Shown here: positions 1,907 to 7,474 of the stretch, piece after piece | How the letters are laid out: the number at the start of each line of letters is the position of its first letter | Position numbering within the stretch: the stretch's first letter is position 1 | Virus record (IMG/VR): IMGVR_UViG_2563366903_000021 | DNA: 12,329 nucleotides | Strand: one strand, 5' to 3' | DNA from: a virus | Lineage: Duplodnaviria > Heunggongvirae > Uroviricota > Caudoviricetes | Translations under genes and position numbers: made by a program | Notes under the pieces: generated by a model | What the model was told of the DNA's origin: nothing | The model's database searches: none | The model's input: the letters and a program-made list of their open reading frames with translations, nothing else

Positions 1907-3880
1907 ATGGCATTTAAACACTATGACGTGGTCAGGGCATCATCGCCGTCAGACCTCGCAGGAAAACTGACGCAAAAACTGAAGGAAGGCTGGCAACCCT
2001 ATGGTAGTCCGATTATCTCAAACGCGGGTTATGGTGCTGAATTTATCCAGGCTATAGTCGCTGAAGGGGATATGACCTCTCCGGTAGTTTCACCGGGGGG
2101 AGATGGTACCCGGACTGTTGTTGTTGAACCAGAATATTACTTTGTCATTGCGCTGGCCGGACAGTCAAACGGCATGGCGTATGGTGAAGGTCTGCCGCTG
2201 CCGGAGACATATGACCGTCCGGACCCGCGTATTAAACAGCTGGCGCGTCGCAGTACGGTGACACCGGGTGGTGCGGCCTGTGCATATAACGACATCATTC
2301 CGGCGGACCACTGCCTGCATGATGTGCAGGATTTGAGCCGTTTTTCTCATCCGAAAGCCAGCGCAGAGCAGTATGGGTGTGTCGGACAGGGATTGCATAT
2401 TGCCAAAAAGCTGTTGCCCTTTATGCCGGAAAATGCGGGTATTTTGTTAGTGCCGTGCTGTCGTGGTGGCTCTGCGTTTACAGCCGGTGCTGACGGAACG
2501 TTCAGTGAAAGTTCAGGAGCGTCGGATAAATCTGAACGATGGGGCGTTGATAAGCCGTTGTATAAAGACCTGCTGACACGCACTCAGGCCGCGCTGAAGG
2601 CAAACCCCAAAAACATACTGCTTTGTGTTGTCTGGATGCAGGGCGAGTTTGATTTAAAACAGGGAGCGTACGCCAGTCAGCCCGCCATGTTTGATGCCAT
2701 GGTGGAAAAATACCGTTCTGACCTGGCGGGAGTATCCGGTCAGTGCGCTGGTGCTTCTCCTTCTCTGGTGCCCTGGATTTGTGGTGACACGACGTACTAC
2801 TGGAAGGAGACGTATTCAGCGCAATACGATGCCGTCTATGGCGCATACAAAACCAAAGCCGGTAAAAATATCTTCTTTGTGCCGTTTATGATGGATGACA
2901 ATGGTCAGAAAGTCGGGACCAATGAACCGTCAGAAGACCCGGATATTCCGGCTATCGGGTATTATGGTTCCGGTGGACGAACGGATGCGAAGAGCTGGAC
3001 AACATCCGATCGTAAAACCCACTTTGGTTCATGGGCGCGTCGCGGAATTATTTCCGACCGTCTGGCAACAGCCATTCTTCTGCATGTGGGCAGAGTGGCA
3101 GATTTTGTTTCCGGGAAAGTGACAAAAGCCGCGGTTTCTTCAGGCGGAGGCGTATCGCAACCAGCACAGGAGAGTGGCGATACTCAGCCTGAATCCGTTG
3201 TCCCGACAAAGATACAGTCAGTGCTGGCTTATGATGCGAATGCGGAAAATGCCGATCTGGCTTCGCAGGGCTGGACGCTGACAGATGTCAAAAACACGCT
3301 GGTCAGTGACAGTGGTTCAGGTAAAAAAGCCCTTCGTCTTGAAAAACCAGAAAATGGTCTTGCACAGAAAAAGACCTGGAAAGTATCGCACGCAATTGAT
3401 GCCGGTAAGGGGAAGGAGCTGTTCGATAACGGCGGTGAAATCACGCTGCGCTTTAAAATCCCCGATGATGTATCTCTCAATGCTTCTGCAAATCAATATT
3501 CTGCGGGTATTTACTGGCGCGGTAGTGGATGGCCGGGAGCGGAATCAGAGGAGGGTTATATTGCGGCCTTCTATCTGCAGACTGATAAAACAAACATCAA
3601 TGTGATGTATCATGCAAACACCACATCACAGCGGCTTGGTAGTTATGGTCCGTTCGATCACGACTGGCACACGCTGACTTTCCGCTTCCCGGGTGGTGGC
3701 TCGCTGAACGTCACGCCGGTGCTTGATAATGCAGCAGGAAAACCGTTTACGCTGACCAGATGGACGAATGCAGCCTTTGAGGCCAACGCGCTGGCAATTA
3801 CGGATATTACCGGAAATGCGGCAACTTACCCTGTGCTGATTGAAAGTCTTACTGTTGGTGTGAATGCCGTAGCAGCATAA
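1907..3880 (+). CDS. nanS-p: Prophage-encoded sialate O-acetylesterase, NanS-p family (SGNH/SASA esterase with C-terminal carbohydrate-binding-like region)
   Basis: 657-aa ORF starting at ATG 1907 (GGGAGG at 1897-1902); the ORF-track start at 1877 has no SD. N-terminus MAFKHYDVVRASSPSDLAGKL resembles the small N-terminal domain of EHEC prophage NanS-p proteins (DUF1737 by memory). GQSN esterase motif (FVIALAGQSNGMAYGE) is encoded at 2159-2170. Position just upstream of the lysis cassette matches where nanS-p morons sit in Stx and related lambdoid prophages. Confidence 0.85.
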   Translation: MAFKHYDVVRASSPSDLAGKLTQKLKEGWQPYGSPIISNAGYGAEFIQAIVAEGDMTSPVVSPGGDGTRTVVVEPEYYFVIALAGQSNGMAYGEGLPLPETYDRPDPRIKQLARRSTVTPGGAACAYNDIIPADHCLHDVQDLSRFSHPKASAEQYGCVGQGLHIAKKLLPFMPENAGILLVPCCRGGSAFTAGADGTFSESSGASDKSERWGVDKPLYKDLLTRTQAALKANPKNILLCVVWMQGEFDLKQGAYASQPAMFDAMVEKYRSDLAGVSGQCAGASPSLVPWICGDTTYYWKETYSAQYDAVYGAYKTKAGKNIFFVPFMMDDNGQKVGTNEPSEDPDIPAIGYYGSGGRTDAKSWTTSDRKTHFGSWARRGIISDRLATAILLHVGRVADFVSGKVTKAAVSSGGGVSQPAQESGDTQPESVVPTKIQSVLAYDANAENADLASQGWTLTDVKNTLVSDSGSGKKALRLEKPENGLAQKKTWKVSHAIDAGKGKELFDNGGEITLRFKIPDDVSLNASANQYSAGIYWRGSGWPGAESEEGYIAAFYLQTDKTNINVMYHANTTSQRLGSYGPFDHDWHTLTFRFPGGGSLNVTPVLDNAAGKPFTLTRWTNAAFEANALAITDITGNAATYPVLIESLTVGVNAVAA

Positions 3881-3886
3881 CAGACG

Positions 3887-3922
3887 AAAAAAACCGCCAG
3901 CAACAGGAATGGAGACTGGCGG
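3887..3922 (-). terminator. Possible intrinsic terminator oriented for leftward transcription, just 3' of nanS-p
   Basis: On the + strand A7 (3887-3893) precedes hairpin ccgccag/ctggcgg (3894-3900/3916-3922) with a 15-nt loop; on the - strand this is hairpin plus T7. The large loop lowers confidence. Confidence 0.4.
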
Positions 3923-4020
3923 AGGTAATCCCAATGGAGAATCTAACGAAAGGATGCTTTCGACATCAATCATTTCTAAATGAAAACAGTTCTCATTGTC
4001 AACAGTAACGGTAATAAACC

Positions 4021-4215
4021 ATGACATTCATCAACCAGTTAATGCTGTACTTCTGTACGGTGGTCTGTGTGTTGTATCTGCTTTCGGGTGGATACAGGGC
4101 AGTACGCGACTTCTGGCGCAGACAGATTGACAAAAGGGCCGCTGAGAAAATCAGCGCCACTCAGTCAGCCGGAGCAAAAACAGAAGCCCCACTCATTCCG
4201 GAACAACCTTCTTAA
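4021..4215 (+). CDS. Hypothetical small membrane protein (64 aa, one N-terminal TM helix)
   Basis: ORF MTFINQLMLYFCTVVCVLYLLSGGYRAVRDFWRRQIDKRAAEK... has a hydrophobic N-terminus and basic/polar tail. No clear SD before 4021, so start and reality are uncertain. Confidence 0.4.
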   Translation: MTFINQLMLYFCTVVCVLYLLSGGYRAVRDFWRRQIDKRAAEKISATQSAGAKTEAPLIPEQPS

Positions 4216-4240
4216 TAACCCCTTTCAACGAGAAAATCTC

Positions 4241-4531
4241 ATGACAGATATAAAACAACTGGTCACTGCTGAGGCAGTGAAGGAAGTCATTCGCTCTGAA
4301 GAAGTCAGAAGCGTCCTGAAACAAAAACTCCGCCAGAATCTGGGAGAGCGTCTTGATGCAGAAGTGGATTCAATTCTGGATGAATTGCTTGGTGCACAGC
4401 CGGAACCATCCCCGGAACTGCTTCCGGAACCACAGGCGGAAGATGTCACCACGGAAAATGGTGATATTCAGCCGGAGTCACCGGTGACGGATATGACAGA
4501 CACACAACCCGAACCGGGCACAATGCTGTAA
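4241..4531 (+). CDS. Hypothetical acidic, Pro/Glu-rich protein (96 aa)
   Basis: ATG at 4241 with a weak SD (gagaaaa). Translation MTDIKQLVTAEAVKEVIRSEEVRSVLKQKLRQNLGERLDAEVDSILDELL... ends in a PEPxPE low-complexity tail. The ORF-track start at 4067 overlaps the preceding ORF and is rejected. Confidence 0.55.
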   Translation: MTDIKQLVTAEAVKEVIRSEEVRSVLKQKLRQNLGERLDAEVDSILDELLGAQPEPSPELLPEPQAEDVTTENGDIQPESPVTDMTDTQPEPGTML

Positions 4532-4542
4532 CGGCGGGGCAG

Positions 4543-4575
4543 GGCCATCAGTAAAACACTGATGGCCTTTTTTAT
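4543..4575 (+). terminator. Strong intrinsic terminator between the 4241-4531 ORF and the holin gene
   Basis: Perfect 10-bp stem ggccatcagt/actgatggcc (4543-4552/4558-4567), loop aaaac, then TTTTTTATTT. Confidence 0.75.
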
Positions 4576-4607
4576 TTCCGGTAGCACAGGTCTGTCGGGG
4601 CGGGGAT

Positions 4608-4823
4608 ATGTATCAGATGGAAAAAATATCAACGGGCATAGCCTATGGTACTTCTGCGGGCAGTGCGGGTTACTGGTTTCTACAGTGGTTGGATCAGGTT
4701 ACTCCGTCACAGTGGGCTGCTATCGGGGTTTTGGGGAGCCTGTGTCTGGGGTTCCTGACATACCTGACGAATCTGTATTTCAAAATTAAAGAGGACCGTC
4801 GCAAGGCTGCCCGGGGAGAGTGA
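4608..4823 (+). CDS. S: Class II holin (pinholin), phage 21 S21 family, with dual-start motif
   Basis: [71 protein letters not shown] is near-identical to phage 21 S21 as I remember it. Two in-frame starts (ATG 4608 and ATG 4617) match the antiholin/holin pair S21-71/S21-68. Confidence 0.9.
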
Positions 4824-4827
4824 TTAG

Positions 4828-5361
4828 GTGACTCAGAAACTCCACTATGGTTTATCGGTAGCCGTTCTGGCGCTGATTGCGGCAGGTGCTTCTGCGCCTG
4901 AAATCATCGACCAGTTTCTTGACGAAAAAGAAGGTAACCACACCACGGCATACCGTGATGGTGCGGGGATCTGGACCATCTGCCGTGGTGCCATCATGGT
5001 GGATGGCAAACCTGTCGTCCCGGGCATGAAGTTGTCGAAGGAAAAATGCGACCAGGTTAACGCCATTGAGCGTGATAAGGCGCTGGCATGGGTGGAGAAA
5101 AACATCAGAGTGCCACTGACCGAACCCCAGAAAGCGGGGATCGCGTCATTCTGTCCGTACAACATCGGGCCTTCGAAATGCTTCACCTCAACGTTTTACC
5201 GGAAACTGAACGCCGGAGACCGGAAAGGTGGATGTGCTGAAATCCGCCGATGGATATATGACGGCGGCAGGGACTGTCGGAATCGCTCAAATAACTGTTA
5301 CGGGCAGGTATCGCGGCGTGACCAGGAGAGCGCGCTGGCGTGCTGGGGAATTGACAGATAA
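4828..5361 (+). CDS. R: SAR endolysin (signal-anchor-release lysozyme, GH24 / T4-lysozyme family, R21-like)
   Basis: GTG start at 4828, 7 nt after GGGGAGAG. N-terminal Gly/Ala-rich weakly hydrophobic segment LHYGLSVAVLALIAAGASAP is typical of a SAR domain. E35-x8-D44-x5-T50 matches the catalytic-triad spacing of R21-type lysozymes. It immediately follows the pinholin. Confidence 0.9.
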   Translation: MTQKLHYGLSVAVLALIAAGASAPEIIDQFLDEKEGNHTTAYRDGAGIWTICRGAIMVDGKPVVPGMKLSKEKCDQVNAIERDKALAWVEKNIRVPLTEPQKAGIASFCPYNIGPSKCFTSTFYRKLNAGDRKGGCAEIRRWIYDGGRDCRNRSNNCYGQVSRRDQESALACWGIDR

Positions 5362-5453
5362 GCAGAATATTTTGCTGAAAAATGCGGTTTGCTCACACGG
5401 ACGGATAACACGAAATCCTGCGAACTGACAAAAACTAAGTGAATAAAAGTAAA

Positions 5454-5490
5454 AACCCCGTTTGTTGGCTGCAAGCGGGGTTTTGTGTTT
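5454..5490 (+). terminator. Terminator-like hairpin after the endolysin gene
   Basis: aaccccg (5454-5460) ... cggggtt (5476-5482) with a 15-nt loop, followed by ttttgtgttt. The large loop makes efficiency uncertain; it could also act on the - strand. Confidence 0.35.
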
Positions 5491-5517
5491 CTGACCTTGG
5501 ATAAGGCAAGGGAGAAC

Positions 5518-5700
5518 ATGGAAAAGTATAAACGAATTCTGTTGAGGTTGACTATGAAAAACGGCCTTGAACTGAAAGCGCCTGTAACTGATGACATCAG
5601 CAGAGCACTGGCTTTTGCCATTAAGTGGGTGGCGGTCGGTGTTGCTGTGTCCCCGATGCTGTATGGGCTGGCAAAACTGGTCATTGCGTTGAAATCGTGA
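5518..5700 (+). CDS. Hypothetical small tail-anchored membrane protein (60 aa) inserted in the lysis cassette
   Basis: ATG 5518 preceded by AAGGGAGA. MEKYKRILLRLTMKNGLELKAPVTDDISRALAFAIKWVAVGVAVSPMLYGLAKLVIALKS has a polar/basic N-terminus and one C-terminal TM helix. The ORF-track start (GTG 5485) lies in the upstream T-tract and is rejected. Confidence 0.5.
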   Translation: MEKYKRILLRLTMKNGLELKAPVTDDISRALAFAIKWVAVGVAVSPMLYGLAKLVIALKS

Positions 5701-5714
5701 AGGGAGGATTAAGC

Positions 5715-5846
5715 ATGTCAGACAAACTCATAACGCTGGCGAAGATCCTCTGTGTAATTGTCGGCATTTCATTTTCACTCATGCTGGTTGCCATTTTCTT
5801 TTCCACCGCCTGGCGAGTCCTGACGTTATCGGGACTGGTGGGGTGA
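5715..5846 (+). CDS. Hypothetical small hydrophobic membrane peptide (43 aa) inserted in the lysis cassette
   Basis: ATG 5715 with a strong SD GGGAGG (5702-5707) at 7-nt spacing. [43 protein letters not shown] is almost entirely one or two TM segments. Start is 14 nt after the previous stop; its stop is 7 nt before the Rz start. Confidence 0.55.
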
Positions 5847-5853
5847 AAGAGAG

Positions 5854-6321
5854 ATGAGCCGTGTTCTGCGTGTGGTGATTATTGTCCTGGCGGGTGGCTG
5901 TGGTGCGCTGTGGCTGGCAACAGACCATTACCGCGATAACGCCATCACCTACAAAGCGCAGCGCGATAAAAAAGCCAGAGAGCTGGAGCTGGCAAACGCC
6001 ACCATTACTGATATGCAGGTGCGCCAGCGCGATGTTGCTGCGCTCGATGCAAAATACTCGAGGGAATTAGCCGATGCGAGAGCTGAAAATGAAACTCTGC
6101 GTGCTGATGTTGCTGCTGGTCGTAAGCGCCTGCGGATCAACGCCACCTGCTCCGGTACCGTGCGTGAAGCCACCGGCACCTCCGGCATGGATAATGCAAC
6201 CGGCCCCCGACTGGCAGACACCGCTGAACGGGATTATTTCACCCTCAGAGAGCGGTTGATGACGATGCAGAAGCAGCTGGAAGGGGCACAGGAATATATC
6301 AGCACTCAGTGCCTGAAATAA
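5854..6321 (+). CDS. Rz: Rz i-spanin (inner-membrane spanin subunit), lambda Rz-like
   Basis: N-terminal TM anchor then coiled-coil periplasmic domain. ...[51 protein letters not shown]...[27 protein letters not shown]... is very close to lambda Rz as I remember it. Confidence 0.85.
6074..6259 (+). CDS. Rz1: Rz1 o-spanin lipoprotein, embedded in the +1 frame of Rz
   Basis: [20 protein letters not shown]|[41 protein letters not shown] has a lipoprotein signal peptide with lipobox VSAC and a proline-rich mature part, like lambda Rz1. It is wholly contained within Rz in another frame. Confidence 0.8.
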
Positions 6322-6622
6322 GTTTTGCTGATGCGCCGTATCGTCGCAGTATTCCCGCATTAACAGAGACCTCAGCCAGACACTGGACCTCCTGCGCGAG
6401 TGTGTGGGGATAATCAAAAACGATGCACACCGGGCTTTCCACGTTTTCAGGTAACGTGAGCGTTTTCCCGCATGGCCGCCTGTCCGGTGCGGTGGTGGAA
6501 GAAACCGGATAAAACAACCATATTGTGTAAATATCAATCAAACAAGACGCTGCTGTGTGAATTCTGAAAAATCACAGCGGTCATTATGCGTCAGTTTTTA
6601 ACAGAGGACGTCAGAAAGTGAC

Positions 6623-7474
6623 ATGGCAAAGCTGGACTGGAAAAAACTGGAGCAGGCATTCCGACGCGAACATGCCAGAACTGGCATAAAACTTCAGGAC
6701 TGGTGTCGACAGAACAATATCTGCTATGGCACGGCTCGTCGGTACATAAAACTGCGCAAAAACTCCCCCAAAAATACAGAGGAAAGTGCGCAGAAAAATG
6801 CGCAAAAAAGTGCGCAAATTGACACTCAAAAAAGCGCACAAAAAAATGCGCATGGAGCTGATGACGAGTCCAGTAATGACGAGTCTTACGGCGATGATGG
6901 CAGTGATGAAAAATGCGCAAAAAACTGCGCAAATTCGGCAGAAACGAAACGCAACAGCAGATCGGGCAATCCTCACCCCGTTGCCCGGTTTAGCGACCGT
7001 AACACCCACGCCGTGAGACACCGTGGATATGCGAAGTATCTTGAGGCAGATAACCTCATGGATGATGCGTCCGATATGGTGCTGTTCGATGAACTGGTGT
7101 TCACCCGTGCCCGCGCACTTTCAGTAACAGGAACACTGAAAAAAATGTTCGCCGACCTGAAAGAGGCGGCTGACGTGGAAACCCGTGTTGCCCTGTACGA
7201 CAAAATACTCAAAGCAGAACAGGCCCTTGACCGGAATATTGCCCGTATCGAGTCAATTGAACGCTCATTGTTGACGCTGGACGTTCTGGCGGAAACAGCA
7301 CCAAAACTTCGTGCTGACCGGGAAAGAATCAACGCTGCCAGAGATAAACTCAGAGCGGAAACCGATATTCTGACCAGCCAGCGTCGGGGCGTTGTTACGC
7401 CTGTCAGTGACATCGTGTCATCGCTGCATGAAATGAGTAATTCGGGGAGACTGGATGACATTCCGGAAGAATGA
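6623..7474 (+). CDS. Terminase small subunit (N-terminal HTH-like DNA-binding region, central low-complexity linker, C-terminal coiled-coil)
   Basis: Sits directly upstream of and overlapping the large terminase. N-terminus ...GIKLQDWCRQNNICYGTARRYIKLRK looks like an HTH. Weak SD, so the exact start is uncertain. Confidence 0.7.
   Translation: MAKLDWKKLEQAFRREHARTGIKLQDWCRQNNICYGTARRYIKLRKNSPKNTEESAQKNAQKSAQIDTQKSAQKNAHGADDESSNDESYGDDGSDEKCAKNCANSAETKRNSRSGNPHPVARFSDRNTHAVRHRGYAKYLEADNLMDDASDMVLFDELVFTRARALSVTGTLKKMFADLKEAADVETRVALYDKILKAEQALDRNIARIESIERSLLTLDVLAETAPKLRADRERINAARDKLRAETDILTSQRRGVVTPVSDIVSSLHEMSNSGRLDDIPEE
6753..6931. repeat. Array of seven TGCGCA palindromic hexamers (plus one AGCGCA) in A-rich context inside terS; candidate terminase recognition (pac-like) site and/or a protein linker repeat
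   Basis: TGCGCA at 6753, 6787, 6799, 6811, 6847, 6914, 6926 and AGCGCA at 6833, mostly as (A)nTGCGCAAA with 12-bp spacing in two runs. About 0.04 copies of a given hexamer are expected by chance in 180 bp. Encodes the AQKNAQKSAQ...KCAKNCAN low-complexity segment. Confidence 0.5.

Follow-up and report, generated by a model that had tools for sequence, protein, structure and literature searches.

Membrane-protein mini-genes between the lysozyme and Rz genes of a Shiga toxin phage-like Escherichia coli prophage

Described lysis systems and the insert between R and Rz

In the canonical lysis cassette of phage 21, the endolysin gene R abuts the spanin gene Rz. The sequence analyzed here, a Caudoviricetes record from IMG/VR (IMGVR_UViG_2563366903_000021; 12,329 nucleotides (nt), the whole of which is referred to below as the window), has the same S-R-...-Rz/Rz1 gene order, gene families and late co-transcription, but R and Rz are separated by a 492-nt insert composed of a terminator and two mini-genes, here called open reading frames (ORFs) A and B. 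By its sequence, the insert is one copy of a portable cassette that combines a bidirectional terminator hairpin, a leader stem-loop partly covering the Shine-Dalgarno (SD) sequence, and at least one mini-gene whose product is a single-helix inner-membrane protein. In E. coli and Shiga toxin (Stx) lambdoid prophages, cassettes of this kind occupy the R-Rz junction in many different combinations.

Antiholins and other small lysis-timing proteins include S21-71, lambda S107 and T4 RI. A and B are likewise small, late and located in the inner membrane, and A possibly has a dual start; they differ in having no sequence relation to any holin or antiholin family, and the cassette that carries them is not bound to one holin type. 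A precedent for a small lysis-timing protein with a single transmembrane domain (TMD) is BSPM4 ORF52, a 64-amino acid (aa) protein that is encoded outside the lysis cassette, is toxic when expressed, binds the holin and delays lysis (PMC11657625). The releasin gp25 of phage Mu is a small membrane-tethered protein encoded just downstream of the signal-anchor-release (SAR) endolysin and expressed late, with an N-out orientation, an N-terminal TMD and a 73-aa acidic cytoplasmic domain (PMC9239132). The likeness to gp25 (DUF2730, PF10805) lies in a gene for a small membrane protein near a SAR endolysin gene. In A, by contrast, the N-terminal part is basic and cytoplasmic and the TMD is C-terminal, B lacks a soluble domain, and the A-B module also occurs beside an endolysin without an N-terminal hydrophobic segment. 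Membership in the releasin family was rejected, as neither protein matches PF10805 (Pfam, E-value up to 1) and the topology does not agree.

Two further groups of elements invite comparison. Classic morons (bor, lom and HK97 gp15) are transcribed in the prophage from a promoter of their own and have a terminator downstream. Like them, the insert separates genes that lie side by side in relatives, codes for membrane proteins and has been reshuffled among phages, but its terminator lies upstream and it has no plus-strand promoter. With type I toxin–antitoxin (TA) systems (Hok/Sok, Ibs/Sib and Zor/Orz) and P22 sar, the cassette shares hydrophobic peptides of at most 60 aa, tandem arrays and a leader that would occlude the SD sequence. 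A short cis-antisense RNA over the ribosome-binding site, ending at a terminator, is a possible further likeness and is here a prediction; unlike type I TA loci, the cassette has no toxin promoter and no similarity to an Rfam antitoxin or a known toxin family.

The components of the insert are as follows.

5362–5447, no strand assigned: conserved "left arm" of ~86 nt, common to all R-Rz insert classes
5452–5494, no strand assigned: bidirectional intrinsic-terminator hairpin (terminator scan and fold)
5495–5517, plus strand: predicted leader stem-loop with a 5-bp stem and a 7-nt loop (folds of 13 modules)
5518–5700, plus strand: ORF A, 60-aa C-terminally anchored inner-membrane protein (ATG 5518, stop 5700; phrog_1115/4493/3246)
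5715–5846, plus strand: ORF B, 43-aa single-helix membrane peptide (ATG 5715, stop 5846; phrog_4906)

The original prediction, made from the letters of the window, had placed a hairpin and 60-aa and 43-aa ORFs between the endolysin and Rz genes, had described the first protein as tail-anchored and the second as preceded by a strong SD sequence, and had recognized neither as a known family; all of this agrees with the results below, and the features lie at the coordinates it gave.

ORF A encodes a basic N-terminal part of 37 residues (net charge +4), followed by its best hydrophobic stretch (residues 38–56) and four terminal residues. In an AlphaFold2 model, a helix at residues 2–14 and a loop precede a long helix at residues 23–59, with a predicted local distance difference test score of ~86–89 over residues 31–60; the helix carries a small-xxx-small spacing (A39/G41/A43/S45). 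The ratio of nonsynonymous to synonymous substitution rates (dN/dS) is 0.15 in the reading frame of A versus 0.89 and 2.0 in the other frames, and A is clearly under purifying selection. A 33-aa ORF that overlaps A in another frame (5591–5692) was rejected given off-frame dN/dS values of ~0.9–2. Within A, an in-frame ATG at 5554 (M13) would give a 48-aa form; it has a GAGG 6 nt upstream, which makes use of a rare AGG codon, and is kept in distant relatives. The mini-ORFs W and A37 (introduced below with the other families) likewise have an upstream GTG start 12–13 codons ahead of an internal ATG. The segment before the internal start suggests either that both forms are made or that it is constrained by the SD sequence and a putative promoter.

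A is annotated by the Prokaryotic Genome Annotation Pipeline (PGAP) as hypothetical protein WP_021566721.1 and matches phrog_1115, phrog_4493 and phrog_3246 (E-values of 1.4e-42, 2.6e-30 and 4.5e-19), all labeled "unknown function". A profile search of 1.84 billion representative proteins returned only 21 relatives, and of 45 pattern matches to the alignment of A in a scan of genome contigs, none passed a tblastn check. All homologues of A come from Escherichia or Salmonella and none has a functional name; distant relatives (~35–45% identity, estimated by eye) keep an MKNG-x-E-x-x-AP motif and the helix, and two short paralogues, A37 and A28 (phrog_4493), end in IRWW.

ORF B is preceded by GGGAGG 7 nt upstream of its start, a strong SD sequence, and stops 7 nt ahead of the Rz start (5854). 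The peptide is one hydrophobic helix with short flanks and no soluble domain. Its dN/dS is 0.64 in frame versus 0.88 and 1.10 in the other frames; across ~30 variants the N-terminal 26 residues are almost invariant, as are W33, S39, G40 and G43. B corresponds to PGAP hypothetical protein WP_001280930.1 and matches phrog_4906 (2.5e-27, "unknown function"), and its homologues are confined to Escherichia and Shigella, none of them functionally named. In a Pfam scan (E-value up to 1), A matched no family and B had only a sub-threshold match to DUF3930; sequence searches of NCBIfam, PADLOC and PDB gave no match to either protein. A, B, W, A37 and A28 each consist of one hydrophobic helix within 28–60 aa. 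Together, these results support both ORFs as genuine, encoding small membrane proteins from uncharacterized families.

Upstream of ORF A, the hairpin has a 14-bp stem at 5452–5484 that is followed by GUGUUUCU (a U-rich tail to 5494), with a folding energy of −21.6 kcal/mol (z = −3.8 versus shuffles) and U-tracts on both strands. The adjoining leader reads CCTTG-GATAAGG-CAAGG (5495–5511), and its 3' arm runs into the SD sequence AAGGGAG (5508–5514). Other modules carry the stem as CCTAT/ATAGG or TGACT/AGTCA, which are compensatory variants. Across modules, the leader pairing holds in 48 of 50 cells, with compensatory changes at two pairs (counted by script), a count that is biased by the selection of the 17-mers by eye. 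Both the A family and the W family retain the leader.

Distribution of the cassette and contents of the R-Rz gap

Coverage of the insert reaches 80% or more in 990 of the 5,426 complete E. coli genomes searched, and 2,116 genomes contain some part of it. B was identified in 276 phage records, mostly of Stx converting phages, including Min27, BP-4795, YYZ-2008 and P13374; the stretch bearing B is unannotated in VT2-Sakai and is listed as "ORF50, hypothetical" in BP-4795. W is present in H-19B and in 921 of the 5,426 genomes. The proteins are already known as PHROG families and RefSeq hypothetical proteins; the architecture of the cassette, its mobility among late-gene junctions and its presence in all surveyed loci (79/79, below) and many Stx phage records appear to be undescribed in the searchable literature.

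To catalogue what lies between R and Rz, the 79 IMG/VR loci closest by Rz were compared. R and Rz are adjacent in none of these loci; the gap falls into size classes from 289 to 1426 nt, and every gap contains at least one mini membrane ORF, so that none is empty. Each of these mini-ORFs belongs to family A, B or W, all of them PHROG families with no assigned function, and sorting the gaps by content resulted in the following classes.

21 loci: a large ORF (>150 aa, mostly ant) and B
20 loci: W alone (32 aa, or 45 aa from an upstream GTG; phrog_6632)
15 loci: A and B
11 loci: arrays of W31-B-A'-A28
5 loci: A alone
4 loci: A37 alone
3 loci: B alone

Because A and B are each found without the other, they are not an obligate pair, and a two-component A + B system was rejected. 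In most array loci the stop codon of B overlaps the GTG start of A' (GTGA), and in a few E. coli genomes (e.g., locus L003, 3001–3252, P0090) B and the downstream A' are joined by a 1-nt indel into a single 83-aa ORF with two helices.

The ends of the insert show how the classes are built. The left arm (positions 1–86 of the insert) was found by BLAST in every insert class except a 289-nt deletion class, which retains positions 1–18. The first ~24 nt of the arm (5361–5384) form a boundary sequence, AGCAGAATATTTTGCTGAAAAATG, that follows the R stop codon here and recurs in locus L181 after the phrog_7528 lipoprotein gene of an unrelated lysis cassette; it resembles a mosaic boundary or a recombination joint. 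The hairpin is kept in all insert classes without ant, save the 289-nt deletion class, and is replaced where the ant module sits. At the right end, one or more mini-ORFs always abut Rz, often via a junction TGGTGGTGAnATG.

The original prediction had held that lambdoid and phage 21 cassettes carry no gene between R and Rz, and it had proposed a synteny survey of S21/R21-type cassettes for presence or absence of the insert. The statement stands for R21-type cassettes of other genera, which are free of the insert and in which the R stop codon overlaps the Rz start (Mangrovibacter, Serratia, Enterobacter, Pectobacterium and others), and it fails for the Stx-like prophages of E. coli, where all 79 E. 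coli-type loci carry an insert. As a separate observation, four E. coli-type R21 lysozyme loci (L088, L092, L105 and L113) lie in records titled Bacillota metagenome-assembled genome (MAG), Veillonella parvula MAG, Sphingomonas and Xanthomonas, which are probably cases of contamination or mis-binning.

The overlap of R and Rz in other genera is one reason to consider that the mini-ORFs have no protein function at all and serve to restore translational coupling or ribosome delivery to Rz, or to counter polarity, the RNA being the functional part. The conserved junction TGGTGGTGAnATG through which mini-ORFs abut the next gene, and the weak constraint on B, would fit this explanation as well. It is hard to reconcile with in-frame dN/dS values of 0.15 for A and 0.06 for W, with the MKNG-x-E-x-x-AP motif and helix kept in distant relatives of A, or with the finding that all three unrelated families are transmembrane, and of the explanations weighed here it is the one we give the least credence.

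The same unit was also found away from S21/R21. The A-B module, or variants with A28 or a 49-aa ORF, occurs in an unrelated lysis cassette (L121, L131, L146, L172, L181, L225 and L227) whose holins are of the Phage_holin_8 and Phage_holin_3_7 families and whose 181-aa endolysin has no hydrophobic segment at its N-terminus; there the hairpin ahead of the mini-ORFs differs in its stem sequence, and a gene for a 60-aa lipoprotein (phrog_7528) follows them. Lipoproteins of this kind (60–62 aa, LVGC lipobox, phrog_7528, function unassigned) occupy the spanin position of phiP27-like lysis cassettes (L131, L181 and others). In the phiP27 record (L236) the lipoprotein is encoded at 2758–2946, and the annotated ORF L32 (2715–2870) lies in another frame.

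Placements outside lysis cassettes were read for those relatives of A with readable contigs. One relative follows tail-fiber genes (L237). On a metagenomic contig (L238), A-like and W-like mini-ORFs follow the major capsid gene, which is lambda E-like, in a tandem array of three hairpin-plus-mini-ORF units (2433–3403); the three hairpins, AAACGCCCCGGCAGTTnGCCGCTGCCGGGGCGTT, are near-identical, and each is followed by one or two mini transmembrane ORFs. An A-W pair in L240 comes after ORFs that read, by sequence only, as a P2-type tail-chaperone (E/E'-like), and W lies between baseplate genes in Rac-SA53-type prophages. A hairpin and a leader are present at all of these non-lysis placements (capsid, baseplate, tail-chaperone and tail-fiber), and in contexts other than the R-Rz gap the hairpin structure is retained with a different stem sequence. 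Among a sample of 146 leader-bearing modules from IMG/VR, 112 are flanked by both R and Rz and 14 more by one of the two, mostly running off the end of the contig; neither gene flanks 17 modules, of which 11 are the Rac-SA53 baseplate form of W and 3 lie in the other lysis cassette. The unit of hairpin, leader and mini-ORF is portable and not tied to the S21/R21 system.

In Salmonella phage SPN3UB, an unannotated W lies between R and Rz, and a 36-aa mini-ORF overlaps the end of R. The latter belongs to a further family of mini-ORFs (26–38 aa, GWGW motif; L242, L108, L109, L112 and L095) that overlaps the end of R21-type lysozyme genes in SPN3UB, Morganella and Edwardsiella. In the SPN3UB record (L242) the GWGW mini-ORF is at ~1497–1607 and unannotated; a similar ORF follows closely after R in Trabulsiella, and the 34-aa ORF of Morganella matches phrog_14810.

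These placements bear on the role first proposed for the two genes, a regulator of lysis timing acting on the pinholin or on release of the SAR endolysin. Since the A-B module is found in an unrelated cassette and outside lysis genes, with other holins and endolysins and after structural genes, a role specific to pinholin or SAR endolysin is not supported. In its most explicit form, this explanation makes A, B or both dedicated partners of the phage 21-type system, as an S21 antiholin or a releasin-like SAR modulator working through helix-helix contacts. In its favor are the position of the genes between those for an R21-type lysozyme and Rz, their co-transcription with the pinholin gene, the small-xxx-small spacing of A, which could pack against a glycine-zipper helix, and the possible dual start of A, which recalls holin/antiholin pairs. 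Weighing more heavily are the identical module next to Phage_holin_8/Phage_holin_3_7 and an endolysin that lacks an N-terminal hydrophobic segment as well as in non-lysis operons, the lack of a Pfam match to holins or DUF2730, a topology opposite to that of Mu gp25, and the absence of the genes from R21-type cassettes of other genera, and we regard a dedicated partnership as highly improbable.

Expression, silencing and possible function

A promoter scan of 4400–6700 found no plus-strand sigma-70-like promoter, and hence none between R and Rz. The terminator precedes A, and the interval from B to Rz contains none. Since no plus-strand promoter is present, A and B must be expressed from the late transcript together with S, R and Rz, which is the co-expression that had been predicted. 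We infer that expression comes solely from Q-antiterminated late transcripts and that the terminator and the leader structure keep the cassette silent in the lysogen.

The only promoter-like site in 4400–6700 is on the opposite strand, inside the first 12 codons of A.

5525–5554, minus strand: putative sigma-70-like promoter (−35 TAGTCA at 5554–5549, 18-nt spacer, −10 TATACT at 5530–5525)

As a lead, this promoter would drive a cis-antisense RNA of ~80 nt, from ~5518 to 5437, that would end at the hairpin. The predicted RNA would begin near the start codon of A and cover the SD sequence and the leader. The geometry recurs in 10 of 13 modules, non-homologous ones included, with the best promoter matches (10/12) in L240 and the A37 class, and the predicted antisense RNAs have two hairpins. 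Shuffles gave per-module P-values of 0.004–0.6 for the 11 modules tested, which Fisher's method, with one module per family, combined to P ~0.01. Conservation of synonymous sites is no higher across the putative promoter than in neighboring codons, and an Rfam scan of 5300–5900 gave only sub-threshold, chance-level matches and no antitoxin family (the best being BTnc005 on the plus strand, E-value 0.016, and the rimP leader on the minus strand, 27.5 bits versus a gathering score of 47, E-value 0.025). Because the promoter statistics are modest and the synonymous sites give no signal, the antisense RNA is treated as a lead and not as a finding.

Such an RNA is central to the possibility that the cassette is a selfish element resembling a type I TA system, in which a membrane toxin is held back by an antisense RNA blocking its ribosome-binding site and which spreads itself or stabilizes the prophage. 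The toxin-like peptide that the original prediction listed among its alternatives gains some support from the RNA architecture. The sole promoter-like site in 2.3 kb is on the minus strand, its geometry is repeated in 10/13 modules with P ~0.01 for one module per family, the predicted RNAs have two hairpins, the peptides are small and hydrophobic and occur in tandem arrays, and the hairpin has U-tracts on both strands. The sar RNA of P22, a short antisense RNA over a ribosome-binding site inside a phage operon, is a precedent. Set against this are the modest promoter scores, with shuffle P-values up to 0.6, the lack of extra synonymous-site conservation over the putative promoter, the absence of an antisense-promoter element from B, the lack of a promoter for the toxin, unlike known type I loci, and the lack of a match to an Rfam antitoxin family. 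We consider this explanation rather improbable.

The pattern of expression also bears on whether the cassette is autonomous moron cargo that is unrelated to lysis and acts in blocking superinfection (DNA entry), in defense or in neutralizing a membrane-bound host defense during late infection. A superinfection-exclusion or abortive-infection moron was another alternative in the original prediction. A mobile, modular unit with its own hairpin and leader at several late-operon junctions would suit such cargo, as would the several families, arrays and rapid reshuffling, which are typical of arms-race cargo. The exclusion protein gp15 of HK97 resides in the inner membrane, and its gene is a moron that lies between the tail-chaperone and tape-measure genes, at a junction similar to that in L240. 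However, with no promoter and a terminator directly upstream, the genes should be silent in lysogens, the setting in which exclusion and defense morons normally operate; PADLOC gave no match, and anti-defense genes are usually early rather than late. Cargo of this type is unlikely, if less so than a TA-like element.

As the most likely function we tentatively propose, at somewhat less than even confidence, a generic membrane-level effect on lysis timing. The extent to which the cassette is insulated suggests a harmful effect of its proteins on the membrane, and because the cassette sits beside unrelated holins and endolysins, and at any late position, their action is probably generic; the cassettes tend toward positions in lysis cassettes, and BSPM4 ORF52 offers a precedent. 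Under this proposal, synthesis of the mini-proteins would be late-only, terminator-insulated and translationally gated, with the putative cis-antisense RNA adding to silencing in the lysogen. As the mini-proteins accumulate, they would perturb the inner membrane or the proton-motive force, and this perturbation would shift the moment of holin or pinholin triggering and the release of SAR endolysin, so that the mini-proteins would act as accessory lysis-timing factors.

Several observations weigh against a function in lysis timing. The step through the membrane or the proton-motive force is one that we infer. Several family members lie inside structural-gene operons, many R21-type cassettes have no such mini-genes, some mini-ORF alleles are frameshifted or truncated, purifying selection on B appears weak, and literature searches found no description of the A and B ORFs. 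Because the R-Rz junction also hosts ant, a non-lysis gene, in VT2-Sakai, BP-4795 and other Stx phages, position is weak evidence for a role in lysis, and the location may merely mark a recombination hot spot.

A bolder version of the lysis-timing proposal, which we consider doubtful but not far-fetched, is that the insert represents an undescribed class of mobile cassette of temperate enterobacterial phages in which a mini inner-membrane toxin, placed behind the bidirectional terminator and the SD-occluding stem-loop and expressed only above a threshold of late transcription, acts as a universal, holin-independent modulator of the lysis clock. The mini-genes belong to the lysis cassettes of many Stx phages, among them H-19B, VT2-Sakai, BP-4795, Min27 and the O104:H4 outbreak-strain phage P13374, as well as of a large share of E. 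coli prophages, and are mostly unannotated there. If they tune lysis, burst size and the timing and amount of toxin release would be affected, and a universal lysis-clock modulator near stx would influence when Shiga toxin is released. If they are instead antisense-gated membrane toxins, they would link type I TA biology with the control of phage late genes and would represent a novel type of moron, one designed to stay silent in the lysogen.

Flanking genes and other features of the window

By gene content, the window is the late region of a lambdoid, Stx phage-like E. coli prophage, with the order IS1 fragment, two STnc100-type RNAs, SASA esterase gene, holin, lysozyme, insert, Rz/Rz1 and terminase genes. 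The lysis genes on either side of the insert have the Pfam matches expected from the original description.

4608–4823, plus strand: S21-type class II holin (pinholin; Pfam Phage_holin_2_1, 5.3e-35)
4828–5361, plus strand: R21-type lysozyme (Pfam Phage_lysozyme, 1.6e-24)
5854–6321, plus strand: Rz i-spanin (Pfam Phage_lysis, 1.4e-49; phrog_13)
6074–6259, plus strand: Rz1 o-spanin lipoprotein, embedded in Rz (Pfam Rz1, 3e-21; phrog_3198)

The holin gene has two candidate start codons (M1 and M4), and its counterpart in the related locus L001 is named "class II holin family protein" by PGAP. The N-terminus of the lysozyme is hydrophobic and SAR-like, with residues 9–27 as its best hydrophobic stretch. 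On these features, the flanking genes are assigned to a phage 21-type cassette of pinholin, SAR endolysin and spanins.

A second terminator-like hairpin was located at 4541–4569, directly upstream of the holin gene, so that S and R are bracketed by two terminators. It falls within the stretch 3900–4570. PasA, PasC and PasD1 are reported to lie between the esterase and holin genes (Pas-sRNA preprint), and 3900–4570 may therefore encode such a Pas-type small RNA (sRNA). Upstream of the SASA esterase gene are two diverged copies (~79% column identity) of the prophage sRNA STnc100, at 997–1190 (140 bits) and 1466–1675 (130 bits); PasD is reported to be structurally related to STnc100 (2026 preprint). 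At the left edge of the window, positions 1–294 contain the 3' part of an IS1 InsB-like ORF.

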